The notes under the pieces are model-generated. The model ran no database searches. It worked only from the letters and a program-made list of their open reading frames with translations, and was not told the DNA's origin. DNA of 64,000 nucleotides from Escherichia coli (GTDB taxonomy: Bacteria > Pseudomonadota > Gammaproteobacteria > Enterobacterales > Enterobacteriaceae), in NCBI RefSeq assembly GCF_022846255.1, contig NZ_AP025682.1, one strand, 5' to 3'. The position numbers were made by a program, and so were the translations under genes. Shown here piece after piece: positions 19,073-62,942 of this stretch. The first letter of the stretch is position 1. The number at the start of each line of letters is the position of its first letter.

Positions 19073-19399
19073 ATGATTAAAACAACGTTACTATTTTTTG
19101 CTACTGCGCTGTGTGAAATTATTGGATGCTTTTTGCCCTGGCTGTGGTTGAAGCGAAACGCCAGTATCTGGCTGTTGCTTCCGGCGGGGATTTCACTGGC
19201 GCTGTTTGTCTGGTTGTTAACGTTGCATCCTGCGGCGAGTGGGCGTGTTTACGCGGCTTATGGTGGCGTTTATGTCTGCACGGCGTTGATTTGGCTGCGC
19301 GTTGTGGATGGCGTGAAACTGACTCTTTATGACTGGACGGGGGCGTTAATTGCGCTTTGCGGCATGTTGATCATTGTTGCGGGCTGGGGGCGCACGTAG
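19073..19399 (+). CDS. ynfA: inner membrane protein YnfA (UPF0060)
   Basis: 108 aa from MIKTTLLFF, four TM segments; track ORF starts 3 codons earlier. Confidence 0.85.
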
Positions 19400-19604
19400 G
19401 AACATAAATCCATTTTATCAATAAGATACGAGGAAGTGTCAGCTGACAAAAGGTATTCTATTTCATCTTTTGTCAACCATTCACGGCGCAAATATACGCC
19501 TTTTTTTGTGATCACTCCGGCTTTTTTTAATCTTCATACTTGTATGGTAGTAGCTCAGTTGCGTAGATTTCATGCATCACGACAAGCGATGCAAGGAATC
19601 GAAC

Positions 19605-20819
19605 ATGAAGATCGTAAAGGCTGAAGTTTTTGTTACCTGTCCGGGGCGTAATTTCGTCACATTAAAAATCACCACTGAGGACGGTATTACGGGCCTTGGG
19701 GATGCCACCCTAAATGGACGTGAGCTTTCCGTGGCCTCTTATTTGCAGGATCACCTTTGTCCGCAGCTTATTGGTCGCGATGCACACCGTATCGAAGATA
19801 TCTGGCAGTTTTTCTATAAAGGTGCTTACTGGCGTCGCGGTCCGGTTACGATGTCGGCCATTTCAGCGGTTGATATGGCGCTGTGGGATATTAAAGCCAA
19901 AGCTGCCAACATGCCGCTTTACCAGTTACTCGGCGGCGCGTCTCGTGAAGGGGTGATGGTTTATTGCCATACCACCGGTCACAGTATTGATGAAGCTCTG
20001 GATGATTATGCCCGTCATCAGGAGCTGGGATTCAAAGCCATCCGCGTGCAGTGCGGAATCCCTGGTATGAAAACCACCTACGGCATGTCGAAAGGTAAAG
20101 GTCTGGCTTATGAACCCGCAACCAAAGGACAGTGGCCGGAAGAGCAGCTGTGGTCGACGGAGAAATACCTCGATTTCATGCCGAAATTGTTTGACGCGGT
20201 ACGTAACAAGTTTGGTTTTGATGAACATCTGCTGCATGACATGCACCATCGCTTAACGCCTATTGAAGCGGCGCGCTTTGGTAAGAGCATTGAAGATTAT
20301 CGCATGTTCTGGATGGAAGACCCGACACCTGCGGAAAACCAGGAATGCTTCCGTCTCATTCGCCAACATACCGTCACACCCATCGCGGTGGGTGAAGTCT
20401 TCAACAGCATCTGGGACTGCAAACAACTGATTGAAGAGCAACTCATCGATTATATCCGCACTACGCTGACCCATGCAGGCGGAATTACCGGTATGCGTCG
20501 GATTGCCGATTTTGCTTCGCTGTATCAGGTACGTACTGGCTCACACGGTCCTTCCGATTTGTCACCAGTCTGCATGGCTGCGGCGCTGCACTTTGATCTG
20601 TGGGTCCCCAATTTCGGTGTCCAGGAATACATGGGTTATTCCGAACAAATGCTCGAAGTCTTCCCGCACAACTGGACTTTCGATAACGGCTATATGCATC
20701 CGGGAGAAAAACCGGGTCTTGGCATCGAATTCGATGAAAAGCTGGCGGCGAAATATCCCTATGAACCTGCTTATCTGCCAGTCGCTCGTCTGGAAGATGG
20801 CACGCTGTGGAACTGGTAA
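19605..20819 (+). CDS. rspA: starvation-sensing protein RspA (enolase superfamily, mannonate dehydratase family)
   Basis: 404 aa from [11 protein letters not shown]; AAGGA Shine-Dalgarno 8 nt upstream. Confidence 0.92.
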
Positions 20820-20830
20820 GGAGTAAGGTA

Positions 20831-21850
20831 ATGAAAAGCATTTTAATTGAAAAACCGAATCAACTGTCGATTATCGAACGTGAAATACCCACCCCGTCAG
20901 CGGGTGAAGTACGAGTAAAAGTGAAACTTGCCGGAATTTGTGGTTCAGATAGCCATATTTACCGTGGGCATAATCCTTTTGCGAAATATCCGCGCGTCAT
21001 TGGTCATGAATTCTTTGGCGTCATTGATGCAGTGGGTGAAGGCGTGGAAAGCGCCAGAGTCGGTGAACGCGTTGCTGTCGATCCGGTGGTCAGCTGTGGG
21101 CATTGCTATCCGTGCTCTATAGGTAAGCCGAACGTTTGTACGACACTTGCTGTATTAGGTGTGCACGCTGACGGTGGTTTCAGTGAATATGCCGTGGTTC
21201 CGGCAAAAAATGCGTGGAAAATTCCTGAAGCAGTGGCCGATCAATATGCGGTGATGATCGAACCTTTTACCATTGCGGCTAACGTTACCGGTCATGGTCA
21301 ACCGACTGAAAATGATACCGTTCTGGTTTACGGTGCCGGCCCAATCGGCCTGACGATCGTTCAGGTATTAAAAGGCGTCTATAACGTTAAAAATGTGATT
21401 GTTGCCGATCGCATTGATGAACGACTGGAAAAAGCGAAAGAGAGCGGGGCAGACTGGGCGATTAATAACAGCCAGACACCGCTTGGCGAGAGTTTCGCTG
21501 AAAAAGGCATCAAGCCGACTTTAATTATCGATGCCGCTTGTCATCCTTCAATCTTGAAAGAGGCCGTAACGCTGGCTTCTCCAGCGGCACGTATTGTATT
21601 GATGGGCTTCTCCAGTGAACCGTCTGAAGTGATTCAGCAAGGAATTACCGGAAAAGAACTCTCTATTTTCTCTTCACGCTTAAATGCAAATAAATTCCCG
21701 GTCGTTATCGACTGGTTAAGTAAAGGGTTAATTAAACCAGAAAAACTAATTACCCATACGTTTGATTTCCAGCATGTTGCGGATGCCATTAGTTTATTTG
21801 AACAGGATCAAAAACATTGCTGCAAAGTCTTACTCACTTTTTCTGAATAA
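20831..21850 (+). CDS. rspB: zinc-dependent alcohol dehydrogenase family protein RspB
   Basis: 339 aa from MKSILIEKPN; GHE/Cys zinc motifs; 12 nt after rspA. Confidence 0.92.
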   Translation: MKSILIEKPNQLSIIEREIPTPSAGEVRVKVKLAGICGSDSHIYRGHNPFAKYPRVIGHEFFGVIDAVGEGVESARVGERVAVDPVVSCGHCYPCSIGKPNVCTTLAVLGVHADGGFSEYAVVPAKNAWKIPEAVADQYAVMIEPFTIAANVTGHGQPTENDTVLVYGAGPIGLTIVQVLKGVYNVKNVIVADRIDERLEKAKESGADWAINNSQTPLGESFAEKGIKPTLIIDAACHPSILKEAVTLASPAARIVLMGFSSEPSEVIQQGITGKELSIFSSRLNANKFPVVIDWLSKGLIKPEKLITHTFDFQHVADAISLFEQDQKHCCKVLLTFSE

Positions 21851-21907
21851 TACCAATAACGGCGAGTAAGTAGTACGCATCTTACCTCTTTTTTAGAGAT
21901 AACCATT

Positions 21908-23275
21908 ATGACAATAGAAAAACACGAAAGAAGCACTAAGGATTTGGTGAAAGCAGCAGTATCGGGATGGCTGGGCACTGCGCTTGAATTTATGGATTTC
22001 CAGTTATATTCGCTCGGCGCAGCGTTAGTGTTTCATGAAATATTTTTTCCTGAATCATCAACGGCAATGGCGTTAATTCTGGCAATGGGGACCTATGGTG
22101 CAGGTTATGTGGCACGTATTGTCGGAGCATTTATTTTCGGCAAAATGGGCGACAGAATAGGGCGTAAAAAAGTGCTCTTTATTACCATCACCATGATGGG
22201 GATCTGTACCACCTTAATTGGTGTGTTACCGACCTATGCACAGATTGGTGTTTTTGCACCCATCTTGCTGGTGACGCTTCGTATTATTCAGGGGTTGGGT
22301 GCAGGTGCGGAAATTTCCGGTGCCGGTACGATGCTGGCGGAATATGCGCCAAAAGGTAAGCGCGGAATTATCTCCTCATTTGTGGCTATGGGAACTAACT
22401 GCGGAACCTTGAGCGCAACGGCAATCTGGGCCTTTATGTTCTTCATTCTCAGTAAAGAGGAACTGCTGGCGTGGGGATGGCGTATACCTTTCCTGGCGAG
22501 CGTTGTCGTGATGGTCTTTGCTATCTGGTTGCGTATGAATCTGAAAGAAAGCCCGGTCTTTGAGAAGGTTAACGACAGTAACCAACCGACAGCAAAACCT
22601 GCACCTGCTGGTAGCATGTTCCAGAGCAAATCCTTCTGGCTGGCAACAGGGCTGCGTTTTGGTCAGGCTGGTAACTCAGGTTTAATTCAGACTTTCCTTG
22701 CAGGCTATTTAGTGCAGACGTTATTGTTTAACAAAGCAATTCCAACAGATGCATTGATGATCAGTTCGATTCTCGGCTTTATGACCATTCCGTTCCTTGG
22801 TTGGTTATCCGATAAAATTGGTCGCCGGATCCCGTATATTATTATGAATACCTCTGCAATTGTGCTGGCATGGCCAATGCTTTCTATCATCGTAGATAAA
22901 AGCTATGCCCCGAGCACCATTATGGTTGCACTGATTGTGATTCATAACTGTGCGGTGCTTGGATTATTTGCTCTGGAAAACATTACCATGGCAGAAATGT
23001 TCGGCTGTAAAAACCGCTTTACCCGAATGGCTATTTCTAAAGAAATTGGTGGTCTTATCGCTTCCGGTTTTGGTCCTATCCTGGCGGGGATTTTCTGCAC
23101 CATGACGGAATCCTGGTATCCGATCGCCATTATGATCATGGCATATTCTGTGATTGGTTTAATCTCTGCGCTGAAAATGCCAGAAGTGAAAGACCGTGAT
23201 TTAAGTGCGCTGGAAGACGCCGCAGAAGATCAACCACATGTTGTAAGAGCTGCGCAACCGTCCAGAAGTCTGTAA
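21908..23275 (+). CDS. ydfJ: MFS transporter YdfJ, intact
   Basis: 455 aa uninterrupted 12-TM-like ORF. Confidence 0.85.
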   Translation: MTIEKHERSTKDLVKAAVSGWLGTALEFMDFQLYSLGAALVFHEIFFPESSTAMALILAMGTYGAGYVARIVGAFIFGKMGDRIGRKKVLFITITMMGICTTLIGVLPTYAQIGVFAPILLVTLRIIQGLGAGAEISGAGTMLAEYAPKGKRGIISSFVAMGTNCGTLSATAIWAFMFFILSKEELLAWGWRIPFLASVVVMVFAIWLRMNLKESPVFEKVNDSNQPTAKPAPAGSMFQSKSFWLATGLRFGQAGNSGLIQTFLAGYLVQTLLFNKAIPTDALMISSILGFMTIPFLGWLSDKIGRRIPYIIMNTSAIVLAWPMLSIIVDKSYAPSTIMVALIVIHNCAVLGLFALENITMAEMFGCKNRFTRMAISKEIGGLIASGFGPILAGIFCTMTESWYPIAIMIMAYSVIGLISALKMPEVKDRDLSALEDAAEDQPHVVRAAQPSRSL

Positions 23276-23284
23276 ATCCTCAAT

Positions 23285-23315
23285 CCCTTCTCTTACCGGA
23301 GAGGGGATTTTTATT
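23285..23315 (+). terminator. intrinsic terminator after ydfJ
   Basis: stem CCCTTCTC/GAGAGGGG followed by ATTTTTATT. Confidence 0.6.
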
Positions 23316-23363
23316 CATATAACAAAACATGTAGCTTGCTATATTTAATTTTAAGGAATTGTT

Positions 23364-24824
23364 ATGGGAAATCATTTGTTATCAGCAAAAGCGACGCTCC
23401 CTGTTTATGATCGTAATAACCTGGCCCCAAGAATTGTTCATTTAGGCTTTGGTGCATTTCACCGTGCGCATCAGGGCGTGTATGCCGATATTCTTGCTAC
23501 GGAACATTTCAGTGACTGGGGATATTATGAGGTCAACTTAATCGGCGGCGAACAGCAAATTGCCGATTTACAACAGCAAGATAATCTTTATACCGTTGCG
23601 GAAATGTCGGCTGATGCGTGGACGGCTCGCGTCGTTGGCGTCGTTAAAAAAGCCTTGCACGTACAAATAGATGGCTTAGAAACCGTGTTGGCTGTGATGT
23701 GTGAACCGCAAATCGCGATTGTCTCTCTGACAATCACCGAAAAAGGGTATTTCCACTCTCCGGCGACCGGACAGTTAATGCTCGATCACCCGATGGTCGT
23801 TGCCGACGTACAAAATCCCCACCAGCCGAAAACTGCAACAGGGGTGATTGTCGAGGCGCTGGCTCGCCGTAAAGCGGCAGGACTTCCCGCATTTACCGTC
23901 ATGTCATGTGACAACATGCCAGAAAACGGTCATGTTATGCGTGACGTTGTCACTTCCTACGCGCAAGCTGTTGATGTAAAACTGGCACAATGGATCGAAG
24001 AAAACGTGACTTTCCCATCAACAATGGTGGACCGTATTGTGCCCGCAGTGACGGAGGATACGCTGGCGAAAATCGAACAACTTACCGGTGTGCGCGATCC
24101 TGCGGGCGTTGCCTGTGAACCTTTCCGCCAGTGGGTAATAGAAGATAACTTTGTTGCCGGACGTCCGGAATGGGAAAAAGCGGGAGCCGAACTGGTTAGT
24201 GATGTGCTGCCTTATGAAGAGATGAAGTTGCGCATGCTCAACGGCAGTCATTCATTCCTGGCGTATCTGGGGTATCTTGCCGGATATCAGCACATTAATG
24301 ACTGCATGGAAGATGAACATTATCGTCATGCAGCGTATGCCTTGATGTTGCAGGAACAAGCGCCGACGTTGAAAGTGCAGGGCGTTGATTTGCAAGATTA
24401 CGCTAACCGATTAATTGAACGCTATAGCAACCCGGCGCTACGTCATCGAACCTGGCAGATTGCGATGGATGGTAGCCAGAAATTGCCACAGCGGATGTTG
24501 GATTCTGTTCGCTGGCATCTGGCGCATGACAGCAAGTTCGATCTGCTGGCGCTGGGCGTCGCAGGTTGGATGCGTTATGTCGGTGGTGTTGATGAACAGG
24601 GAAATCCGATAGAAATCAGTGACCCACTGTTACCTGTTATTCAGAAGGCTGTACAAAGTAGTGCCGAAGGGAAAGCGCGCGTCCAGTCATTGCTGGCGAT
24701 TAAGGCGATCTTTGGTGATGATTTGCCAGACAATAGCTTGTTTACTGCAAAAGTGACGGAAGCGTACTTGTCTTTATTAGCGCATGGTGCGAAAGCGACC
24801 GTGGCGAAATATTCCGTGAAGTAA
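23364..24824 (+). CDS. ydfI: mannitol-dehydrogenase-family oxidoreductase YdfI
   Basis: 486 aa, long-chain mannitol/mannonate dehydrogenase family. Confidence 0.88.
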
Positions 24825-24852
24825 AAAAAGCAATGCCGCCATCGGCGGCATT
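24823..24852. terminator. bidirectional stem-loop between convergent ydfI and ydfZ
   Basis: AATGCCGCC/GGCGGCATT perfect stem preceded by A7 on + strand (U-run on - strand). Confidence 0.55.
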
Positions 24853-24859
24853 CACACGC

Positions 24860-25063
24860 TTAGTTCATGCCGAGACGAATCAGGTCCAGAGGTGCCAGTT
24901 TCTCTTCACAACCTTCAACAACTACGGTTTTTCCGCGGCGGATTTGCTCAGCGGTCAGACCTTCAGTATCAATCGACAGGATCTTGCCAGTGTGACCGGT
25001 GCCGCTAACCATAACACGGCTGCCAGTGGTGATTGCGTTACGGTTACGATCGTAGGTCGTCAT
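24860..25063 (-). CDS. ydfZ: putative selenium-binding protein YdfZ
   Basis: 67 aa ORF, sequence recognised as YdfZ. Confidence 0.85.
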
Positions 25064-25239
25064 AGGTGTTTTCTCCTTTCTGATTTACAGTCGAAGCCCA
25101 CGTAACGGGCGCACTATAAATACTCCTGTCGAGTGAAATATTTTTTGTTTTTGATCAAGCTCACATCTTTTTTGATGCATGCATGAGCCATATGACGGAG
25201 GGAAAAACTCTCACCCCGGATGGGATGAGAGGAAATGAA

Positions 25240-25926
25240 TTACTCTTCGCTAAACCAGTCGCTGTTTTCCTGACGGATCTGGCGCACGGATTCGCTGATT
25301 TCCTGCAAATGGTGCGTCATTGCACGTTCTACCGCATCGCCATCACGTTTTTGCAGGGCAGAGAAAATCTCAAGATGCTGGCGTAACAGCATTTCTGGTG
25401 GAGAAACGTGGTCGAAACTCATATAGCGCACGCGATCAACGGTCGCTTTCAGGTTCTCAATGGTATCCCACGCCAGTTGACAGTCGGCAATCTGCGTCAG
25501 GAGTTGATGGAAGTTGTCATCAAGTTCAAAAAAATCATCCAGTTGCTTGCGCTCTATGGCAATGCGTTGCTGGTGAAGATTTTGTTCCAGTTGGTAGCAC
25601 TGGCTTTCGGTAATCATGCTCGCCGCCCGACGCGCCACCGCGCACTCAATGGCCTGACGGATAAAACTGCCGTTGCGCACCTGGGCCATGGAAATTTTGT
25701 TGACGTAGCTGCCACGCTGCGGACGAATTTGAATCAGGCCGTTTTCCGCCAGTTTAATAAAGGCTTCACGAACCGGCTGGCGTGACACATTGAAACGAAC
25801 AGAAACTTCTTTTTCCGACAACGGTGTGCCTGGTGCAATCAGGCAATGGACAATGTCGCGACGAAGAATACGATAAATCTGCTGATTGACAGGCTGTGTG
25901 GGATTAAGTTGCGTTTCGACGGTCAT
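25240..25926 (-). CDS. ydfH: GntR/FadR-family regulator YdfH (RspR)
   Basis: 228 aa, N-terminal GntR HTH and FCD domain. Confidence 0.88.
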
Positions 25927-26014
25927 TCGTTCTTGCTTGTGAGTGAGTTAACTGCATGAGTCTACCACTTTTTTGTGACAAGCAATAACCCGGCAGTTAC
26001 GCCGGGTATAAAAA

Positions 26015-26761
26015 TTACTGACGGTGGACATTCAGTCCGGCATAGCTTTGGGTAACCGGCATCATTTCCAGGGTATTGATATTGACGTGAGCAGGCAGCG
26101 TTGACACCCACCAGACGGCTTCGCTGACATCTTCCGGCGTCAATGCAACGGTATTTTGATAGGTTTTTTCCGCTTTACTGTCATCGCCTTTAAAGCGGAC
26201 ATTGGAAAACTCGGTGCCACCCACCAGACCCGGTTCGATGTCGGTGACGCGCACCGCCGTACCATGCAGGTCCGTACGCAGATTCAGGCTAAACTGACGA
26301 ACAAACGCTTTCGTCGCACCGTAAACGTTACCACCGGCATACGGCCAGCTGCCTGCCGTTGAGCCAATGTTAATAATATGACCATGATTACGTTCAACCA
26401 TACCCGGTAAGACGGCGCGCGTCATATATACCAGGCCTTTGTTGTTGGTATCAATCATCGTTTCCCAGTCTTCAACGCTGGCTTTATGCGCAGGCTCCAT
26501 GCCCAACGCCAGGCCGGCATTATTTACCAGGATATCAATATTGCACCACTCGGCAGGAAGCGATGCCAGCATCTCTTCAATAGCGGCGCGGTTGCGAACG
26601 TCCAGTTGGGCGATATACAGATTATCTCCCAGTTCGTCTTTTAACTCCTGTAACCGCTCCTGGCGACGGCCAGTGGCGATAACTTTATGCCCTTGTTGAA
26701 TAAAACGACGAGTAATGCATTCACCAAAACCTGCCGTTGCTCCAGTTACTAAAACGATCAT
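26015..26761 (-). CDS. ydfG: NADP-dependent 3-hydroxy acid dehydrogenase YdfG (SDR family)
   Basis: 248 aa from MIVLVTGATAGFG (Rossmann TGxxxGxG), YxxxK active site. Confidence 0.9.
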   Translation of the reverse strand: MIVLVTGATAGFGECITRRFIQQGHKVIATGRRQERLQELKDELGDNLYIAQLDVRNRAAIEEMLASLPAEWCNIDILVNNAGLALGMEPAHKASVEDWETMIDTNNKGLVYMTRAVLPGMVERNHGHIINIGSTAGSWPYAGGNVYGATKAFVRQFSLNLRTDLHGTAVRVTDIEPGLVGGTEFSNVRFKGDDSKAEKTYQNTVALTPEDVSEAVWWVSTLPAHVNINTLEMMPVTQSYAGLNVHRQ

Positions 26762-26897
26762 CTCACTGTTCCTCAACGCTTTTGTGTGTCAATAACATAG
26801 CACGTGATGCTTAAGAGCGGGTAATACTGGTTTGCAAGATTGCACTCCGTTATCAGTAAGCCTACGCTATGGAACACCTCGCGTTCAGGAGAAGAAA

Positions 26898-28943
26898 ATG
26901 ACAACAATGAATCCTTTCCTTGTGCAAAGCACACTGCCGTATCTGGCTCCCCATTTTGATCAAATTGCCAACCATCACTATCGCCCGGCATTCGATGAGG
27001 GAATACAGCAAAAGCGGGCAGAAATTGCTGCCATCGCGCTTAACCCGCAAACACCTGATTTTAAAAATACTATTCTGGCACTGGAACAAAGCGGAGAATT
27101 ACTTACCCGCGTTACCAGCGTCTTTTTTGCGATGACTGCGGCGCATACCAATGATGAATTACAGCGTCTTGATGAACAGTTTTCCGCTGAACTGGCGGAA
27201 CTTGCGAATGATATCTATCTGAACGGGGAATTATTCGCGCGGGTAGATGCTGTCTGGCAACGCCGTGAATCCCTGGGGCTTGATAGTGAATCCATCCGCC
27301 TGGTGGAGGTGATTCATCAACGTTTTGTCCTTGCCGGAGCCAAACTTGAGCAAGCTGATAAAGCAAAATTAAAAGTACTGAATACAGAAGCTGCGACCCT
27401 GACCAGCCAGTTTAACCAGCGGTTACTGGCAGCAAATAAATCCGGCGGTCTGGTTGTGAACGATATCGCGCAGCTGGCAGGAATGAGTGAACAAGAGATT
27501 GCGCTGGCGGCAGAGGCGGCTCGCGAGAAAGGTCTGGATAACAACTGGCTGATTCCGCTGCTGAATACCACCCAGCAACCAGCGCTTGCTGAACTGCGCG
27601 ATCGCGCGACGCGTGAAAAACTGTTTACTGCGGGCTGGACGCGAGCGGAAAAAAATGATGCCAATGATACCCGCGCTATCATTCAACGTCTGGTGGAGAT
27701 CCGCGCGCAGCAGGCGAAACTGCTTGGTTTTCCTCATTATGCCGCATGGAAAATCGCCGATCAGATGGCAAAAACGCCAGAAGCAGCGCTCAACTTTATG
27801 CGGGAAATTGTTCCAGCGGCGCGTCAACGTGCGAGCGATGAATTAACCTCCATACAGGCGGTTATCGATAAGCAGCAGGGCGGGTTTAGCGCGCAGCCGT
27901 GGGACTGGGCATTTTATGCCGAGCAGGTAAGACGTGAGAAATTCGATCTCGATGAAGCGCAGCTCAAGCCTTATTTCGAATTAAACACGGTGTTGAATGA
28001 AGGCGTATTCTGGACTGCGAATCAGCTCTTCGGTATTAAGTTTGTCGAACGTTTTGATATTCCTGTCTACCATCCTGACGTTCGTGTGTGGGAAATTTTT
28101 GATCATAATGGCGTGGGGCTGGCGTTATTTTACGGTGATTTCTTCGCCCGTGATTCAAAAAGCGGCGGCGCATGGATGGGCAATTTTGTTGAGCAATCAA
28201 CGCTGAATGAAACGCACCCGGTAATTTATAACGTCTGCAATTATCAGAAACCCGCTGCCGGTGAGCCTGCGTTGTTACTCTGGGATGATGTAATAACCTT
28301 ATTCCATGAATTTGGTCATACGCTGCACGGCCTTTTTGCCCGCCAGCGTTATGCCACGCTTTCCGGCACCAACACGCCGCGTGATTTTGTCGAATTTCCG
28401 TCGCAAATCAACGAACACTGGGCAACACATCCGCAGGTATTCGCTCGCTACGCCCGGCATTATCAGAGCGGGGCCGCAATGCCTGACGAACTTCAACAGA
28501 AAATGCGTAATGCCAGCCTGTTCAATAAAGGGTATGAGATGAGCGAACTGCTTAGCGCCGCACTTCTCGATATGCGCTGGCATTGTCTGGAAGAAAACGA
28601 AGCAATGCAGGACGTCGATGATTTCGAATTGCGGGCGCTGGTGGCGGAAAATATGGATCTTCCTGCTATACCGCCACGCTATCGCAGCAGTTATTTCGCC
28701 CATATTTTTGGTGGCGGATATGCCGCAGGTTATTACGCTTATCTGTGGACGCAAATGTTGGCCGATGATGGTTACCAGTGGTTTGTTGAGCAGGGCGGAT
28801 TAACGCGTGAAAATGGGCGGCGTTTTCGCGAGGCGATTCTTTCCAGAGGTAACAGCGAAGATCTGGAACGCCTGTATCGACAATGGCGCGGTAAGGCACC
28901 TCAGATTATGCCGATGCTGCAACATCGTGGCTTGAACGTATAA
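26898..28943 (+). CDS. dcp: dipeptidyl carboxypeptidase II Dcp (M3 family)
   Basis: 681 aa from [10 protein letters not shown] with AGGAGAAG Shine-Dalgarno; HEFGH zinc motif. Confidence 0.92.
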
Positions 28944-29449
28944 ACACCACCAATGGCTGGCCTGGATTTATCGCCAGACCAGCTTCGTTATAGCAGTAAT
29001 TGCAGCAACTGGGCGAGGGCAAACTTCACCGCTAATGCGAATGCCGTTTCGCAGTCGCCAGCAAAATTACTTTTTTTGTATACTCTTCCGTTATAATAAT
29101 TTTCAAATTCAGCCGGACCAGATGATCAACATTAGCGGCAGTCTGGATAAGAAAAGCGCGCCGGCCGTCGTTCGGGTCACTCAGTTGCAGAAATAAAAAT
29201 AAATTAGCCTGATGGCCTGAACTACTGGGCCATTAGGGTATTGGGTTATGCTATTTGTCATCCTTTTAATTGCGATAATGCAGAGTTAATTTATAGAATT
29301 AAACACTTTTTTATCTGCTGATTTTGTTTTAAATCACAATGTTATCTCAGAGATGCTCATAACTCCGGATTTCTATGAAAATATTGACGTAATTTTGCTT
29401 TTCTCTCGTTAGAATAGCGCGCACAAGGAACTGTGAAAAAGGAGTGGCA

Positions 29450-30350: not shown

Positions 30351-30374
30351 ACATTCATTGAGAAAACTGATGCT

Positions 30375-30483
30375 ACTGTGTCAACGATCCGTTATCAGTG
30401 CAGGAAAATGCCTGTTAGCGTAAAAGCAAAACACAAATCTATCCATGCAAGCATTCACCGCCGGTTTACTGGCGGTTTTTTTT
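30375..30483 (+). ncRNA. mgrR: candidate MgrR small RNA (5' end approximate)
   Basis: Roughly 100-nt + strand interval between a PhoP-box-like repeat and a strong intrinsic terminator; K-12 encodes the PhoP-dependent sRNA MgrR between dgcZ and mgtS (memory); 5' end not determined. Confidence 0.45.
30458..30483 (+). terminator. intrinsic terminator, 3' end of candidate MgrR
   Basis: 7-bp GC-rich stem CCGCCGG/CTGGCGG with 4-nt loop followed by T8. Confidence 0.7.
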
Positions 30484-30490
30484 CGCCGTC

Positions 30491-30531
30491 ATAAAAATCA
30501 GGCCCCTTGTACACAACTGTAACAAGGGGCC
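30491..30531 (-). terminator. intrinsic terminator after mgtS
   Basis: 10-bp perfect stem GGCCCCTTGT/ACAAGGGGCC; on minus strand followed by TGATTTTTAT. Confidence 0.6.
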
Positions 30532-30558
30532 GGTTAGGTGAGGGATTATCTCCGTTCA

Positions 30559-30654
30559 TTAGTCATCCCATTTGTGGCTGAAATACGCGGCCAGAAACCC
30601 AGAAAATAAAATTATTCCCAGTACGGCCATAAAAACATTCATATTACCCAGCAT
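30559..30654 (-). CDS. mgtS: small membrane protein MgtS (YneM), 31 aa
   Basis: Hand translation of minus strand: MLGNMNVFMAVLGIILFSGFLAAYFSHKWDD with GGAGG 6 nt upstream of ATG; recognised as MgtS; below ORF-track cutoff. Confidence 0.8.
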   Translation of the reverse strand: MLGNMNVFMAVLGIILFSGFLAAYFSHKWDD

Positions 30655-32162: not shown

Positions 32163-33062
32163 ATGTCGCGAAAAGATGGGGTGTTGGCGCTACTGGTAGT
32201 GGTTGTATGGGGGCTAAATTTTGTGGTCATCAAAGTGGGGCTTCATAACATGCCACCGCTGATGCTGGCCGGTTTGCGCTTTATGCTGGTCGCTTTCCCG
32301 GCCATCTTTTTTGTCGCACGACCGAAAGTACCACTGAATTTGCTGCTGGGGTATGGATTAACCATCAGTTTTGCGCAGTTTGCCTTTCTGTTCTGCGCCA
32401 TTAACTTTGGTATGCCTGCTGGACTGGCTTCGCTGGTGTTACAGGCACAGGCGTTTTTTACTATCGTGCTTGGCGCGTTTACTTTCGGTGAGCGACTGCA
32501 TGGCAAACAATTGGCGGGGATCGCCTTAGCGATTTTTGGCGTACTGGTGTTAATCGAAGATAGTCTGAACGGTCAGCATGTGGCGATGCTCGGCTTTATG
32601 TTGACCCTGGCGGCAGCATTTAGTTGGGCGTGTGGCAACATCTTCAATAAAAAGATCATGTCGCACGCAACGCGTCCGGCGGTGATGTCGCTGGTAATCT
32701 GGAGCGCATTAATCCCAATCATTCCCTTCTTTGTTGCCTCGCTGATTCTCGATGGTTCCGCAACCATGATTCACAGTCTGGTTACTATCGATATGACCAC
32801 CATCTTGTCTCTGATGTATCTGGCATTTGTGGCGACAATCGTTGGTTATGGGATCTGGGGAACACTGCTTGGACGCTATGAAACCTGGCGGGTTGCACCG
32901 TTATCGTTACTGGTGCCTGTAGTTGGACTGGCAAGTGCGGCACTATTGTTGGATGAACGCTTAACGGGTCTGCAATTTTTCGGTGCGGTGCTCATTATGA
33001 CCGGGCTGTATATCAATGTATTTGGCTTGCGGTGGCGTAAAGCGGTAAAGGTCAGAGGCTAA
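32163..33062 (+). CDS. eamA: cysteine/O-acetylserine exporter EamA (YdeD), DMT superfamily
   Basis: 299 aa from MSRKDGVLALLVVVVWGLNFV; two EamA repeats. Confidence 0.9.
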   Translation: MSRKDGVLALLVVVVWGLNFVVIKVGLHNMPPLMLAGLRFMLVAFPAIFFVARPKVPLNLLLGYGLTISFAQFAFLFCAINFGMPAGLASLVLQAQAFFTIVLGAFTFGERLHGKQLAGIALAIFGVLVLIEDSLNGQHVAMLGFMLTLAAAFSWACGNIFNKKIMSHATRPAVMSLVIWSALIPIIPFFVASLILDGSATMIHSLVTIDMTTILSLMYLAFVATIVGYGIWGTLLGRYETWRVAPLSLLVPVVGLASAALLLDERLTGLQFFGAVLIMTGLYINVFGLRWRKAVKVRG

Positions 33063-33067
33063 ACCAT

Positions 33068-33110
33068 ACGCACAGAATGTGATGCCAGCACTCTGTGCGT
33101 CTGCTTTTAT
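33068..33110 (+). terminator. stem-loop terminator after eamA; left edge of accessory island
   Basis: 9-bp stem ACGCACAGA/TCTGTGCGT followed by CTGCTTTTAT. Confidence 0.55.
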
Positions 33111-33805
33111 CGCGGGAAAAAGTACTTTACCTGGAACTCGAAAATATTGCTGTAAAGTAACGAATAATCCAGCGGAATAGAGTTACTATCCACAGCCTGG
33201 GTCTGAATTTTAAGTATGGGATCCCGTGGGCTGATCCGTAAAATACTGGCGATTTCTGGGGTAGGAAAAGTCGGGGAGAAAGTTTCAAAGGTGCCAATGA
33301 TTTTGATCCCGCATTCGTTCTCAATATACGAAAATTTGGATTTTTGCATATGCGATACGGTTAAATCAGGAAAACGTGCCACTGACATCCACGTTTCTTC
33401 TAATTGTGCTGCATTATCCTCAATGAATCGCAGTCTCTTTATGTAATAAACCTGCTCACCAGTCACTAAATTCAGCTCAGTCGCAATAGTAGGAGAAGCA
33501 TCCTGCACTTCAAATTTCATAATCTGACTTCCTGCCTCTTTGCCGCTTTTATGTGCAATTTCACTGAAACTGTTCATGTGATCAATGTGTGCAACAAAAT
33601 TCTTTTTTTGAATGTATGTTCCTGAACCATGCTTTCTGTGAATAATTCCTTCGCCTTCCAGCAGGGATAATGCCTTACGCAGGGTATTACGCGAAACATT
33701 ATAACGAACAGCGAGTTCCGCTTCTGACGGCAACAAATCACCAACATGCCATGAATTGCCATTGATCTCGGATTTAAGTAAGCGGGCAATCTTTTGAAAA
33801 ATCAC
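33107..33805 (-). CDS. GntR/HutC-family transcriptional regulator (HTH plus UTRA effector domain)
   Basis: 232 aa, GTG start; N-terminus IFQKIARLLKSEINGNSWHVGDLLPSEAELAVRYNVSRNTLRKAL is a typical GntR HTH; divergent from PTS operon. Confidence 0.8.
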   Translation of the reverse strand: MIFQKIARLLKSEINGNSWHVGDLLPSEAELAVRYNVSRNTLRKALSLLEGEGIIHRKHGSGTYIQKKNFVAHIDHMNSFSEIAHKSGKEAGSQIMKFEVQDASPTIATELNLVTGEQVYYIKRLRFIEDNAAQLEETWMSVARFPDLTVSHMQKSKFSYIENECGIKIIGTFETFSPTFPTPEIASILRISPRDPILKIQTQAVDSNSIPLDYSLLYSNIFEFQVKYFFPR

Positions 33806-34003
33806 TTTTGCACCTTTTAAGAGCCATTGAAAACAAGGAGTTGAGACCTGATTAGTTTATCGTATGGCCGAGTCGTTTAATTATCACCCTGTTGTTGAAC
33901 AACTTTATTGCTGTATTACTGTGATCAATGTACCAGGACGTGTAGCTACTGTGGGATATGATATTTACACAATGTAGTCTGTTATATACCAGTAAGGAAA
34001 AAT

Positions 34004-34315
34004 ATGAAAAAGATATTGTTAGTTTGCGCTGCGGGCATGTCAACCAGTATGCTGGTTAAACGTATGATTGATCATGCTACCGCTATTTCACTTGAAGTTA
34101 ATATTTCCGCATTGGCGATTGCAGAGGCTAAAGGGAAAATTAAAAATAACGAAGTTGACGTTGTTTTACTTGGTCCGCAAGTTCGCTTTCAGAAACCAGA
34201 GATTGAAGCCGTTGCACAGGGGAAAATGCCTGTAGCCGTTATCGAGATGAAAGACTATGGCACAATGAACGGACAGGCAGTTCTTGAATTTGCGATGAAA
34301 CTACTGCAAGAGTAA
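34004..34315 (+). CDS. PTS EIIB, lactose/cellobiose family
   Basis: 103 aa, MKKILLVCAAGMSTSM with the phosphorylatable Cys; AAGGAAA Shine-Dalgarno. Confidence 0.85.
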   Translation: MKKILLVCAAGMSTSMLVKRMIDHATAISLEVNISALAIAEAKGKIKNNEVDVVLLGPQVRFQKPEIEAVAQGKMPVAVIEMKDYGTMNGQAVLEFAMKLLQE

Positions 34316-34429
34316 GAATCTAATATTATTAAACTATTACCTGAACTAACTTTTCACACATCATAAAATGGATATGGCATACATGCTTTATTGGGATGTA
34401 TAAATATCCAGGACAACAGGTATAAAAAA

Positions 34430-35752
34430 ATGGGATTAATGGCATCATTCGAACGTGGAATGGAACGTTTTCTTGTTCCAGTTGCTATCAAGTTAAACTC
34501 ACAAAAACATGTTGCAGCGGTGAGAGATGGATTCGTTTTTACGTTTCCAATTATCATGGCAAGCTCATTAATTATATTAATTAACTTTGCCATATTATCG
34601 CCCGACGGTTTTATTGCCGGATTACTGCATCTGAACAGCATTTTCCCCAACCTTGAAAAAGCACAAGCTATTTTTACTCCGGTAATGAATGGTTCTGTAA
34701 ATATCATGTCAATTATGATTGCTTTCCTGGTCGCCAGGAATGTGGCGATTAGCTATGAGCAAGATGATCTTTTATGCGGATTAACGGCAATAGGAGCATT
34801 TTTTATTGTTTATACCCCATACCAGATGATAGATGGGCAGGCATTCCTGACGACCAAATATCTCGGCGCGCAGGGGTTGTTTGTTGCTGTTATCGTTGCA
34901 TTGATCACCAGTGAAATATTTTGTCGCTTAGCTCGAAACCCCAAAATCACCATAACGATGCCGGCAGCTGTACCTCCTGCGGTAGCGCGTTCATTTAAAG
35001 TTTTATTGCCAATATTTTTTGTCATGGTGTTCTTTTCCGCACTTAATTATTGCCTGACATTGATATCCCCGGCAGGATTAAATGATCTCATTTACACATT
35101 AATCCAGACGCCGCTCAAACATATGGGAACGAATATCTTTGCGGTAATTATCCTGGGGGCTGTGGGTAATTTCCTCTGGGTGCTGGGGATCCACGGACCT
35201 AATACAACGTCGGCAATTCGAGAAACCGTTTTTTCTGAGGCTAATCTGGAGAATCTCTCCTGGGCCGCTCAACACGGCACTACCTGGGGCGCGCCATATC
35301 CGATTACCTGGACTTCTATTAATGATGCATTCGCCAACTGCGGCGGTTCAGGTATGACGTTGGGGTTATTGTTGGCTATTTTTATCGCTTCTAAGCGTGC
35401 GGAATACCGTGATCTGGCAAAAATGTCATTTATCCCCGGTATTTTCAATATCAATGAACCGATAATGTTCGGCCTTCCTATTGTACTTAACCCCATCATG
35501 ATGGTGCCGTTTATTATGGTTCCCATTGTTAACTGTGCCATTGGTTACTTCTTTGTTTCGATGGAAATTATTCCACCGGTTGCTTATGCCGTGCCCTGGA
35601 CTACGCCCGGACCTTTAATTGCTTTCCTCGGAACCGGGGGAAACTGGCTGGCATTACTGGTTGGTTTTTTATGTTTAGGTGTGGCGACAATGATCTATTT
35701 ACCTTTTGTTATCGCCGCCAACAAAGTCAATAACATGACAACTAACGGATAA
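34430..35752 (+). CDS. PTS EIIC permease, lactose/cellobiose family
   Basis: About 440 aa multi-TM ORF; start uncertain (ATG 34430 or 34439; track ORF begins at TTG 34391). Confidence 0.85.
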   Translation: MGLMASFERGMERFLVPVAIKLNSQKHVAAVRDGFVFTFPIIMASSLIILINFAILSPDGFIAGLLHLNSIFPNLEKAQAIFTPVMNGSVNIMSIMIAFLVARNVAISYEQDDLLCGLTAIGAFFIVYTPYQMIDGQAFLTTKYLGAQGLFVAVIVALITSEIFCRLARNPKITITMPAAVPPAVARSFKVLLPIFFVMVFFSALNYCLTLISPAGLNDLIYTLIQTPLKHMGTNIFAVIILGAVGNFLWVLGIHGPNTTSAIRETVFSEANLENLSWAAQHGTTWGAPYPITWTSINDAFANCGGSGMTLGLLLAIFIASKRAEYRDLAKMSFIPGIFNINEPIMFGLPIVLNPIMMVPFIMVPIVNCAIGYFFVSMEIIPPVAYAVPWTTPGPLIAFLGTGGNWLALLVGFLCLGVATMIYLPFVIAANKVNNMTTNG

Positions 35753-35779
35753 TTCCATTTACCCAGGAAGGAGATTGTG

Positions 35780-36091
35780 ATGTTTGCAGATGAAGAACTT
35801 GTTATGGAGTTACTGATCAACGCGGGACAGGCTCGTTCTGATGCGATGGAAGCCATACGTTGTGCCGGGCAAAAAGACTGGCAGGGCGCAACTAAACTAA
35901 TGGCCAGCTCTGAATCTGCCTGTCTTCAGGCGCATAAGATTCAGACCGCGTTAATTAGTCAGGATGAAGGCTGTGGCAAAATAGAAGTTAATTTAATTCT
36001 GATACATGCACAGGATCATTTGATGAATGCAATATTATGCCAGGATTTAGCCAGGGAAATTATTTCATTAAGAAAAGAGCTCCATGCCTGA
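35780..36091 (+). CDS. PTS EIIA, lactose/cellobiose family
   Basis: 103 aa, conserved His in HAQDHLM context; AGGAAGGAG Shine-Dalgarno 7 nt upstream of ATG. Confidence 0.85.
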   Translation: MFADEELVMELLINAGQARSDAMEAIRCAGQKDWQGATKLMASSESACLQAHKIQTALISQDEGCGKIEVNLILIHAQDHLMNAILCQDLAREIISLRKELHA

Positions 36092-36142
36092 TTTTTTCTC
36101 CAGTGCGATATCTGGAGGAAATTACTACACTCTTAAGGATAA

Positions 36143-39287
<3,145 letters not shown>

Positions 39288-39312
39288 GACTTCAGGAAGA
39301 TATTACGGAAAT

Positions 39313-39338
39313 GTCAGGCTCTGTGATCAGAGCCTGAC
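39313..39338 (-). terminator. stem-loop terminator of marRAB; right edge of accessory island
   Basis: 11-bp perfect stem GTCAGGCTCTG/CAGAGCCTGAC with 4-nt loop; U-rich on the minus-strand side. Confidence 0.6.
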
Positions 39339-39343
39339 AATAA

Positions 39344-42524: not shown

Positions 42525-42862
42525 AACAGATTATCGGGTGAGTTGCGAAAAAGTGATGAAATGATCTTAAAACGGTTAATGATGTGAATACAATGCATTT
42601 GTGATCTGGATCGCATTTCCATCTCTCTGACGGTTGTTCTGTCACGCATCAGAGAGTTGTTAACATCACATTTTAATGACGATCAGGAAGGGGGCCTGTT
42701 CTTCTTTTACTTGAGGTGCAATATTACGAACGGGAAAATCATCAGGAAGAGATATGTAATTGCTGATGCTTACTGGCGTAACCATATTTGCCCCATATAG
42801 TCATAAGTCATCGGAACATCACTATATAGAGCATATTAGCCGTATGAACTATCAAAAATAGC

Positions 42863-46582: not shown

Positions 46583-46720
46583 TAATTACGGAAATCGATA
46601 AAATGGCATTCATTAGGTATCTTTAGTTGCCGCCGTTGTCAGCGAACATGCTATCCTTTCTAAGAATTTACTTATTGCGTTGAGATAATTGCCACCCGCA
46701 ATTGTATGGACAGATAATTA

Positions 46721-48139
46721 ATGCATGTACAGCCCATTTCAACTTTCCGTTTGTTCCAGGAAGGTCATCTGCTACGTAATAGCATCGCTATTTTTGTGCT
46801 AACCACGCTGTTCTATTTTATTGGTGCAGAGTTACGGCTGGTTCACGAACTTTCTCTTTTCTGGCCGCTGAATGGCGTAATGGCGGGGGTGTTTGCCCGC
46901 TATGTCTGGCTTAATCGACTGCATTACTATGCGATCAGTTATGTGGCGATGCTGGTTTATGATGCCATAACCACCGAATGGGGGCTGGTTTCACTGGCTA
47001 TCAATTTCTCCAATATGATGTTTATTGTTACCGTCGCCTTACTGGTCGCGCGGGATAAGCGTCTGGGGAAAAATAAGTATGAGCCAGTAAGTGCCTTACG
47101 GCTATTTAATTACTGTCTGATTGCCGCATTATTATGCGCTATTGTCGGGGCGATTGGTTCGGTCAGTATTGATAGTCTGGATTTCTGGCCTTTGCTTGCG
47201 GACTGGTTCAGTGAGCAATTCTCAACGGGCGTGTTGATCGTGCCTTGTATGCTGACGTTGGCAATTCCTGGAGTGCTGCCGCGCTTTAAAGCAGAACAGA
47301 TGATGCCCGCTATCGCGCTTATTGTGTCGGTTATTGCCTCGGTAGTCATTGGCGGAGCGGGGAGTCTGGCGTTCCCGCTGCCTGCATTAATCTGGTGTGC
47401 AGTGCGCTATACGCCGCAGGTAACATGTCTGTTGACCTTTGTCACCGGTGCGGTGGAAATCGTACTGGTGGCAAATTCGGTGATTGATATCTCGGTCGGT
47501 TCGCCGTTCTCCATTCCGCAAATGTTCTCCGCACGTCTCGGTATTGCCACGATGGCGATATGCCCAATTATGGTTTCTTTTAGCGTGGCAGCGATCAATT
47601 CGCTAATGAAGCAAGTTGCGCTGCGAGCCGACTTTGATTTTCTGACCCAGGTTTACTCACGGTCCGGTCTTTATGAGGCGCTGAAAAGTCCATCGCTGAA
47701 ACAGACACAACATCTGACGGTCATGCTGCTTGATATCGACTATTTCAAAAGCATTAACGATAACTATGGACATGAATGTGGCGATAAAGTGTTAAGCGTG
47801 TTTGCCCAGCATATTCAGAAGATTGTCGGTGATAAGGGGCTGGTGGCGCGAATGGGCGGCGAAGAATTTGCTGTTGCAGTGCCATCGGTGAATCCTGTCG
47901 ATGGTCTGCTAATGGCGGAAAAAATCCGTAAAGGCGTTGAACTGCAACCGTTCACCTGGCAACAAAAAACGCTTTATCTCACGGTAAGTATTGGCGTCGG
48001 TAGTGGTTGCGCATCGTACCGAACGCTGACCGATGACTTTAATAAATTGATGGTTGAAGCCGATACATGTCTGTATCGCTCGAAGAAAGATGGGCGCAAC
48101 CGTACCAGCACTATGCGTTACGGTGAGGAAGTTGTCTGA
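46721..48139 (+). CDS. dgcF: membrane-bound diguanylate cyclase DgcF (YneF)
   Basis: 472 aa, N-terminal multi-TM domain plus C-terminal GGDEF (GGEEF); exact start uncertain. Confidence 0.8.
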   Translation: MHVQPISTFRLFQEGHLLRNSIAIFVLTTLFYFIGAELRLVHELSLFWPLNGVMAGVFARYVWLNRLHYYAISYVAMLVYDAITTEWGLVSLAINFSNMMFIVTVALLVARDKRLGKNKYEPVSALRLFNYCLIAALLCAIVGAIGSVSIDSLDFWPLLADWFSEQFSTGVLIVPCMLTLAIPGVLPRFKAEQMMPAIALIVSVIASVVIGGAGSLAFPLPALIWCAVRYTPQVTCLLTFVTGAVEIVLVANSVIDISVGSPFSIPQMFSARLGIATMAICPIMVSFSVAAINSLMKQVALRADFDFLTQVYSRSGLYEALKSPSLKQTQHLTVMLLDIDYFKSINDNYGHECGDKVLSVFAQHIQKIVGDKGLVARMGGEEFAVAVPSVNPVDGLLMAEKIRKGVELQPFTWQQKTLYLTVSIGVGSGCASYRTLTDDFNKLMVEADTCLYRSKKDGRNRTSTMRYGEEVV

Positions 48140-60502: not shown

Positions 60503-62800
60503 TTGTTAAATGCCAGCTTGCAGATTCATCGTTCCATCACCAGTACTATATTCAAGGGGAAATTGCTATTCACGCTGATCAATGCGCTCAAAGGCGATGG
60601 CTTGATGCGAGTGCAGCTGTCATCCTCCGACAAAATGTTTGGCTTTACCCATGCAGCAGGGACTGAATTCGCCGGTGTTGCCCAACTGAAAGCCAGTACC
60701 TTCGCACTGGAACGCGACAACACCGCTGCGCTTACTTACGCGATGCTGCAGTCTGACAGTGAAAATACCACATTGGTAAAAGTGGGAGAGCAATCCATTG
60801 GTGGACTAGCCATGAATGGCGGTACGCTCACGTTCGATACGGATATACCTGCTGCGACGCTTGCGGAGGGATATATCAGCGTCGATACGCTGGTTGTCGG
60901 CGCGGGTGACTACACCTGGAAAGGCCGTAACTATCAGGTAAACGGGACGGGCGACGTGCTTATCGACGTGCCTAAACCGTGGAATGATCCCATGGCGAAT
61001 AACCCTCTGACGACGCTCAATTTTATGGAACACGACGATAGCCATGTCGGCGTTCAACTGGTGAAGGCGCAAACGGTTATTGGATCGGGTGGTTCATTAA
61101 CGTTACGTGATTTACAGGGCGACGAGGTGGAAGCGGACAAAACGTTACATATTGCGCAAAACGGAACGGTGGTCGCCGAGGGTGATTATGGATTCCGACT
61201 CACGACCGCACCTGGTGATGGTTTGTATGTTAACTATGGGCTGAAAGCGCTGAACATCCATGGTGGGCAAAGCTGACGTTAGCCGAACATGGCGGAGCCT
61301 ATGGCGCAACGGCCGATATGTCGGCAAAAATCGGTGGCGAAGGGGATCTGGCAATCAATACGGTACGACAGGTTTCGCTTTCCAACGGTCAGAACGACTA
61401 TCAGGGGGCAACCTACGTTCAGATGGGGACATTACGTACCGATGCGGATGGCGCGCTGGGCAACACCCGGGAACTGAACATCAGCAACGCGGCCATCGTC
61501 GATCTTAATGGATCGACCCAGACGGTAGAGACATTCACCGGGCAAATGGGTTCGACTGTTTTGTTTAAAGAGGGGTCGCTGACGGTGAATAAAGGTGGGA
61601 TCAGTCAGGGCGAACTGACAGGTGGCGGAAACCTGAATGTTACAGGGGGAACACTGGCTATCGAGGGGCTTAATGCACGCTACAATGCGTTAACCAGCAT
61701 TAGCCCAAATGCGGAAGTCAGCCTCGATAATACGCAGGGGTTAGGCAGAGGAAATATTGCCAATGACGGTCTGTTAACGCTAAAAAATGTGACCGGCGAA
61801 CTGCGTAATAGCATAAGCGGGAAGGGTATCGTGAGCGCAACCGCCAGGACAGACGTAGAGCTGGATGGCGATAATAGCCGCTTTGTGGGGCAATTCAACA
61901 TATACCGGAAACAATGGCCTGATGACGTTCAACGCGACGCTGGGCGGCGATAATTCACCCACGGATAAAATGAACGTGAAAGGCGATACCCAAGGGAACA
62001 CTCGCGTTCGGGTTGATAACATTGGCGGCGTCGGTGCACAAACGGTCAACGGTATTGAACTCATTGAGGTTGGCGGTAATTCTGCAGGTAACTTCGCGCT
62101 GACCACCGGAACTGTCGAAGCTGGGGCTTACGTCTACACGCTGGCTAAAGGGAAGGGGAATGACGAGAAAAACTGGTATCTGACCAGTAAATGGGACGGC
62201 GTAACGCCACCGGATACACCAGATCCCATCAATAATCCTCCTCAGCTGGGCGCTGTATAACTGGTTTGATAACAGCGTCAGTTCCGATAACCGTTCTGCT
62301 GACGACTATGATTCTCGCGGTGTGACGGCCTCTGTTGAGGGTGGGTATACCTTTGACGGGGAACATTTAGTGGCAGCGAAGGGACGCTGAATACCTGGTA
62401 CGTCCAGCCACAGGTGCAAATCACCTGGATGGCTGTGAAAGATTCTGACCATACCCGGAAAGACGGAACACGCATTGAAACGGAAGGTGACGGAAACGTG
62501 CAAACGCGACTTGGGGTGAAAACCTACCTGAACAGTCATCACCAGCGTGACAATGGTAAACAGCGTGAGTTCCAGCCTTACATTGAAGCGAACTGGATCA
62601 ACAACAGCAAAGTCTACGCCGTGAAGATGAATGGTCAAACTGTAAGCCGTGATGGTGCGCGTAATCTCGGTGAAGTACGTACCGGGGTTGAGGCGAAAGT
62701 AAATCACAACCTTAGCCTGTGGGGGAATGTCGGTGTGCAACTAGGTGATAAAGGCTGTAGCGATACTCAGGGCATGCTGGGTGTGAAATATAGCTGGTAA
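60503..62800 (+). pseudogene. yneO: autotransporter adhesin remnant (yneO/ydeK-like), 5'-truncated and multiply frameshifted
   Basis: Four + strand track ORFs in different frames (60503..61276, 61318..61953, 61865..62260, 62414..62800); Gly/Asn-rich passenger-like repeats; last fragment ends ...LGVKYSW typical of autotransporter beta-barrels; no signal peptide at 5' end. Confidence 0.7.
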
Positions 62801-62808
62801 ACCGTATA

Positions 62809-62842
62809 AGCCGCATGTCGAAGATGCATGCGGCTTAATATT
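62809..62842 (+). terminator. stem-loop after the autotransporter remnant
   Basis: 9-bp stem AGCCGCATG/CATGCGGCT followed by TAATATT. Confidence 0.5.
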
Positions 62843-62875
62843 GCCGACTTCAAACGACTTTTAAATCCTCCTTTT

Positions 62876-62921
62876 TATCCGCGATCGCGGATATCACAGT
62901 GTTTATCCCGTAGAGCGGATA
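62876..62921. promoter_or_regulatory. two HipB operator palindromes (TATCC-N8-GGATA) upstream of hipB
   Basis: TATCCgcgatcgcGGATA (62876-62893) and TATCCcgtagagcGGATA (62904-62921), exact matches to the HipB operator consensus. Confidence 0.65.
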
Positions 62922-62942
62922 AATATGCTGTGGACGTATGAC

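Follow-up and report, generated by a model that had tools for sequence, protein, structure and literature searches.

The window analysed here, a 64-kb (64,000-nt) stretch of Escherichia coli DNA, carries at 21985..22003, within an intact ydfJ gene, what is very probably (about 95%) the vacant attachment site (attB) of lambdoid phages with an IntQ/mEp460-type tyrosine integrase, and this vacancy would be ancestral rather than the result of Qin loss from a K-12-like genome. The finding is already known: it is an ordinary, documented strain difference, in which a well-known prophage site is seen in its ancestral, empty state. Prophages sharing this locus, core, and rspB-end integrase family have been described as Qin (Kim) of K-12 and as the "PPydfJ" prophages of STEC/EPEC (Nakamura et al. 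2021, PMC8112680; Ramisetty and Sudhakari 2019, PMC6379469). Their attB shows no material difference from that of the window, which comes from another strain with the vacant form, and the vacant site of O104:H4 strain C227-11 has already served as a reference attB (PMC8112680, S7 Fig).

The site lies in an uninterrupted rspA-rspB-ydfJ-ydfI-rspR neighbourhood, whose features are as follows.

19605..20819 (+): rspA, D-mannonate dehydratase of the ManD family, first gene of the cluster (ORF list)
20831..21850 (+): rspB, Zn-dependent oxidoreductase immediately 5' of ydfJ (ORF list)
21851..21907 (+): rspB-ydfJ spacer, 57 bp, equal in length in strain MCJCHV-1
21908..23275 (+): intact ydfJ, 455-aa MHS-family MFS transporter (ORF, profile, and RefSeq identity)
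23282..23309 (+): terminator-like hairpin with a 12-bp stem and T-run, just 3' of the ydfJ stop (consensus match only)
23364..24824 (+): ydfI, fructuronate-reductase-like member of the mannitol dehydrogenase family (ORF list)
25240..25926 (-): rspR (ydfH), GntR-family repressor of rspAB (ORF list and K-12 annotation)

Both the ORF list and the raw sequence place the rspB stop codon (TAA) at 21848-21850, followed by the spacer and by ydfJ as a single unbroken ORF, so that the preliminary description of this region, in which rspB ended at 21850 and an uninterrupted 455-aa ORF began at 21908 without phage genes, was correct on each of these points. The start of rspA was set from the 404-aa RefSeq form, and that of rspB is most likely 20831, which yields the 339 aa of the RefSeq protein, rather than the upstream GTG at 20807 given by the mechanical ORF list. 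Family assignments were supported by NCBIfam profiles for RspA (NF043051 ManD equivalog, 744.6 bits against a cut-off of 550), RspB (NF007489 equivalog, 694 bits over residues 1-339 of 339), and YdfI (NF011611, 650 bits against a cut-off of 603). Upstream of rspA-rspB are ynfA, ynfB, and speG, and ydfG and dcp follow downstream, past rspR. According to the ORF list, no phage genes adjoin the ydfJ site, which is flanked by rspA, rspB, ydfI, rspR, ydfG, and dcp, and an Rfam scan of the whole window detected no RNA gene at or near it. A consensus scan of 19300-25300, which as plain consensus matching is not evidence of function, returned no promoter-like or terminator-like match in the rspB-ydfJ spacer.

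The ydfJ product is identical over all 455 residues to RefSeq WP_000151242.1, annotated as "MHS family MFS transporter YdfJ", from strain MCJCHV-1, in which the start codon and the 57-bp spacer are also as in the window. It matches TIGR00883, the metabolite/H+ symporter subfamily of the MFS, with 462.9 bits (curated cut-off 443.45), the match covering residues 23-418 and profile positions 1-400 of 400. The hydrophobic segments in a crude Kyte-Doolittle scan overlapped one another, and TM1 did not stand out, with values of at most 1.13 in its region. From gene order and family membership, the substrate would be a sugar acid of the mannonate/gulonate type, as pointed to by its neighbours, i.e., the ManD-type RspA, the Zn-dependent dehydrogenase RspB, and the fructuronate-reductase-like YdfI. 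Wichelecki and colleagues, writing in Biochemistry in 2014, are said to have assigned L-gulonate catabolism to this cluster (RspB, YdfI) in strain CFT073.

The K-12 record (NC_000913.3) has a different arrangement, with a "cryptic prophage Qin" annotated at 1632277..1652745. This 20.4-kb element sits inside the 5' end of ydfJ and is flanked by ydfJ (b1543, 1631002..1632285) on one side and by ynfP (1652728..1652838) and rspB (1652896..1653915) on the other; the order on the rspB side is intQ pseudogene, the 36-aa gene ynfP, rspB. The placement of Qin between ydfJ and rspB, which the preliminary description had given, agrees with this annotation as to location but needs refining, since the prophage actually lies within the 5' end of ydfJ. 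That K-12 ydfJ is disrupted likewise holds, with a refinement: its first 31 codons are split off, but current RefSeq carries a 427-aa CDS and not a pseudogene. This CDS starts at Met29, its first 9 bases overlap the Qin feature, and its translation, beginning MDFQLYSLG, corresponds to the window protein from Met29 onward, with a single difference (H444R) over residues 29-455. The severed end persists in YnfP (MTIEKHERSTKDLVKAAVSGWLGTALEFMDFKSHAC; sequence from PMC6001520), which consists of residues 1-31 of the window YdfJ plus five phage-encoded residues. In strain CEC13004, the truncated form of ydfJ is flagged as a pseudogene by PGAP.

A local megablast against K-12 1580000-1685000 confirmed that the two loci differ by the prophage. 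Window positions 1-22003 correspond to K-12 1674742-1652743 (98.0% identity) and positions 21985-29067 to K-12 1632291-1625212 (97.7% identity). The two flanking blocks overlap by 19 bp in the window, and the K-12 DNA absent between them (1632291-1652743) is Qin. Collinearity with the K-12 backbone extends to both sides, and the missing Qin is the sole break at the site. At base level, the insertion maps to codons 26-32 of the window ORF, which locates the insertion point that the preliminary description had expected within this gene. The sequences that define the site, in the window and in lysogens, are listed below.

21985..22003 (+): vacant attB, 19 bp, TGAATTTATGGATTTCCAG; the left and right megablast pieces overlap here across E. 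coli genomes
21990..22000 (+): att core, 11 bp, TTATGGATTTC, containing the ATG of Met29
rspB-side junction in lysogens: …TGAATTTATGGATTTC-AAGAGTCATGCG…
ydfJ-side junction in lysogens: …TGAATT-ATGGATTTCCAGTTATATT…

The attB lies 78-96 nt into the ydfJ ORF and encodes L-E-F-M-D-F-Q (about residues 26-32), and the start ATG of the K-12 CDS falls inside the core. For PPydfJ, an "18- or 19-bp att sequence" has been reported (PMC8112680, S7 Fig legend), in agreement with the length of this attB. The 64-kb window contains a single copy each of the 19-mer and the 11-mer, and the 19-mer remains unique even with 3 mismatches. In the alignment, the 11-bp core TTATGGATTTC was identical in the window, at both K-12 junctions, at the rspB-side junction of strain 98E11, at the ydfJ-side junction of CEC13004, and in the attP of phages mEp460 and PhiR42_1. 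The phage attP, TGAATT-ATGGATTTCAAG, which reads …CACCTGTGAATTATGGATTTCAAGAGTCAT… in mEp460 and PhiR42_1, departs from attB only at the two edges, by one indel and one mismatch. These differences make the junctions diagnostic: on the rspB side, the bacterial TTT is retained and a phage A is gained after TTTC, whereas on the ydfJ side the phage TT is present and the bacterial C is retained. Each lysogen junction, those of K-12 included, is the expected attB/attP hybrid, and because these hybrids share the 11 bp, the crossover can be placed inside 21990..22000. The window has the bacterial type at both edges, with its TTT run ending at 21991 and with C22001. No phage-derived sequence was found within 21851-23275, across which related genomes align continuously at 99.5%. 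The alignment of attB, attP, and junctions therefore supports the unoccupied attachment site proposed in the preliminary description, and the attB-like core anticipated there is the 11-bp segment at 21990..22000.

The phage side of the reaction could be identified from both ends of the prophages. Just inside the rspB-side junction, 98E11 encodes an intact 426-aa tyrosine integrase and an excisionase remnant, and just inside the ydfJ-side junction CEC13004 encodes tail-fibre, DUF1076-domain, and DinI-like genes. Integrase and excisionase genes at one prophage end with tail-fibre genes at the other are the usual lambdoid layout. An attP reconstructed by joining both phage arms was searched against a phage collection and was contiguous in four free temperate phages, mEp460_ev081 (LR597641), PhiR42_1 (PV340562), HannyBb (PP925841), and Tritos (OV696610). 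The contiguous match in HannyBb and Tritos was at ~91% identity, the identity of the core being read in mEp460 and PhiR42_1. The attP of PhiR42_1 adjoins an integrase, and that of mEp460 a 426-aa integrase together with an excisionase gene. The mEp460 and 98E11 integrases are 98.8% identical, and K-12 intQ encodes residues 31-426 of this integrase type at 97% identity, with an IS2E at its 5' end in the K-12 record. All four phages are partners of the bacterial site rather than examples of it, and the window contains no DNA from them. Many records of Stx2a-converting phages (LC727840-LC727868), which are prophage extracts, matched one attP arm only, either over bases 1-200 at 100% or over 190-400 at ~90% identity. 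A second attP type was considered for these, and the one-arm matches may represent mosaic phage ends or prophage-in-prophage clusters; phage-in-phage clusters at the ydfJ locus have already been described (PMC8112680).

Both states were counted across the species. A 400-bp probe centred on the site matched contiguously in 2,005 of 5,426 complete E. coli genomes (37%), and in most of the others it split into two half-length pieces meeting at 21985-22003. The IntQ-type rspB-side junction, represented by a 300-bp 98E11 probe in which 5' ydfJ is fused to the integrase arm, matched contiguously in 2,707 of the 5,426 (50%). The remaining E. coli genomes have other configurations, for example an IS inside ydfJ or larger deletions. 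Only the ydfJ-side half was detected in O157:H7 (e.g., NZ_CP017438.1 and NZ_CP028680.1) and in CEC13004, with the rspB-side piece (the rspB 3' end and first 31 ydfJ codons) unmatched in the same record, a pattern that suggests a deletion on the rspB side of the prophage cluster. Prophages at the Qin locus were previously reported in about 48% of 638 strains (PMC6379469).

The site is also found, unoccupied, beyond E. coli. When one genome per species was scanned for exact copies of the 19-mer (~6x10^11 positions), 12 matches were obtained, six of them in the enterobacterial genomes of Siccibacter colletis, S. turicensis, Enterobacter asburiae, Buttiauxella gaviniae, Citrobacter koseri, and Escherichia sp. 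MOD1-EC7003. The six non-enterobacterial matches were taken as chance, the expectation being ~2 under uniform composition and more for an AT-rich pattern. By tblastn, the order rspA-rspB-ydfJ-ydfI is complete in S. colletis and E. asburiae; S. turicensis has rspB-ydfJ-ydfI, with rspA beyond the stretch compared, and C. koseri and Escherichia sp. MOD1-EC7003 have rspA-rspB-ydfJ, the compared locus ending inside ydfJ. In all five genomes with rspB, ydfJ abuts it and is intact over the part compared, and YdfJ in the four non-Escherichia genomes is only 81-86% identical. In Buttiauxella, the genes recovered were rspA and part of ydfJ. The C. koseri NCTC10786 homologue of RspB (767-1785) was recovered as three overlapping tblastn pieces in different frames, suggesting that this rspB is frameshifted or that the assembly contains sequencing errors. 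The same gene order and an identical 19-mer in other enterobacterial genera indicate that the intact state is ancestral, and the coding segment targeted by the phage, L-E-F-M-D-F-Q, is strongly conserved and lies where the match to the MHS profile begins, profile position 1 aligning with residue 23.

An intact site could also have arisen secondarily, if it was once occupied in this lineage and then restored by precise integrase/excisionase-mediated excision. Such curing would recreate an attB indistinguishable from the original, the necessary active phages with matching attP, intact integrases, and excisionase genes exist, and with half of complete E. coli genomes occupied both gain and loss are plausible. 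We nevertheless regard it as unlikely: the closest genomes listed (ST131, Nissle 1917, clone D i2, and MCJCHV-1) are all uninterrupted, as are the other genera, so that parsimony favours an inherited vacancy, and the window has no scar and no phage-type base at either diagnostic edge position. An assembly or sampling artefact such as a collapsed prophage, in a strain that really carries a Qin-like element, was considered because repeated lambdoid prophages are often mis-assembled, but this found no support and has a negligible probability, since the same uninterrupted junction, matched at up to 99.8% identity, recurs independently in 2,005 complete genomes, the surrounding 24-kb block aligns end to end in one piece with many complete genomes, and the junction is a clean ORF identical to a RefSeq protein.

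With the window's site read as an ancestral vacant attB, the integrase would exchange strands inside the 11-bp core upon integration, which is the norm for lambda-family tyrosine integrases. Integration splits ydfJ, leaving the promoter-proximal 31 codons with rspAB (K-12 ynfP) and depriving the remainder of its promoter and first 28 codons, including the start of the MHS-profile region; that the truncation removes the beginning of the conserved region follows from the TIGR00883 alignment, which begins at residue 23. Qin was previously reported to integrate site-specifically at the ydfJ 5' end, with loss of the promoter and 28 N-terminal codons (PMC6379469). In the vacant state, full-length ydfJ would probably share a transcript with rspAB, come under RspR control, and serve the sugar-acid cluster as its transporter, because no promoter-like or terminator-like site was matched in the 57-bp spacer and the terminator-like hairpin comes only after ydfJ. 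RspR represses the rspA promoter, and rspR and rspAB are kept apart by Qin in K-12 and not in some other strains (PMC8249747): the distance from the start codon of rspA to the rspR gene is 5.6 kb in the window and ~26 kb in K-12, with Qin between. One could further imagine ydfJ occupancy as a reversible metabolic switch ("active lysogeny"), in which the vacant state couples the transporter to RspR-controlled rspAB, integration uncouples it, and excision under particular conditions restores it. We consider such a switch highly unlikely; if it operated, a nutritional trait would set strains like that of the window apart from K-12-like ones.

Several other E. coli prophages likewise use a tyrosine integrase acting on a short conserved coding segment, including Rac in ttcA, e14 in icd, and Stx phages in wrbA, yehV/mlrA, and yecE (PMC6379469). 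As at ydfJ, occupancy of these intragenic lambdoid sites varies between strains and the end of the host gene is altered (PMC6379469). However, whereas e14 (icd) and Rac (ttcA) use phage sequence to restore a functional end of the gene, at the ydfJ site the phage replaces neither the N-terminus nor the promoter, and ydfJ is left truncated in lysogens. Lambdoid phages with nleC or nleG effector genes integrate at this locus often and variably (PMC8112680; also PMC8767318, PMC10132054), and prophages with Stx genes occupy it in O178:H19, with nleC/nleG prophages in others (PMC6379469, PMC8112680). Prophage PP_SE11-3 of strain SE11 is a further published case of ydfJ integration. For the window, the importance of the vacancy is small beyond annotation and the placement of the strain outside the K-12 lineage. 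The site would be a free landing site for lambdoid phages, and the genome retains a full-length YdfJ in an unbroken rspAB-ydfJ-ydfI-rspR neighbourhood, so that work on the function of the cluster is better based on such strains than on K-12.

The affinities of the strain were assessed from the remainder of the window. By megablast, the large backbone blocks are 97.0-98.0% identical to MG1655, interrupted by several indels: the window has an additional 6.3-kb island and a longer dgcF, and lacks ydeI-ydeJ and yneK. The best complete-genome matches listed, which include Nissle 1917, reach only 99.1% identity over 24 kb, and for the 1.7-kb locus the closest among the matches listed were ST131, clone D i2, and MCJCHV-1. 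These strains and Nissle 1917 belong to phylogroup B2. No exact match was found among complete RefSeq genomes. Judged from its sequence, the strain is outside the K-12 lineage, as Qin is absent and identity to MG1655 is not near-complete. The preliminary description had drawn the same conclusion from the missing prophage; the conclusion stands on the 97.7-98.0% identity and the several indels, but Qin absence alone is insufficient for it, as 37% of complete E. coli genomes are intact too.

The 6.3-kb block (window 33052-39342) lies between eamA and marB and is not in K-12. It contains the following genes, whose functions were judged by translations only.

33107..33805 (-): GntR-type regulator
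34004..36091: cellobiose-type PTS IIB, IIC, and IIA
36146..36703 and 36826..37824: porin-like gene, apparently split, a possible pseudogene
37818..39287: 6-phospho-beta-glucosidase-like protein

Other differences from K-12 are smaller. The dgcF (yneF) ORF at 46721..48139 encodes 472 aa, compared to 315 aa annotated in K-12, and ~500 bp at its 5' end (window 46655-47154) are missing from K-12, where dgcF may be a 5'-truncated diguanylate cyclase gene. Conversely, the window is without ~1 kb of K-12 at 29067-29108 (K-12 1624193-1625212, ydeJ and most of ydeI) and without another ~1 kb at 42691-42701 (K-12 1615847-1616860, most of yneK). Towards the K-12 yneO pseudogene (an autotransporter remnant) and hipB, window 60570-62922 is rearranged or shorter, with K-12 1595799-1598466 missing, then further small gaps. 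The sole Rfam match at gathering threshold in the window was the Hfq-binding sRNA STnc560 at 30352-30565 (+), with 281.9 bits, at a position corresponding to K-12 mgrR.
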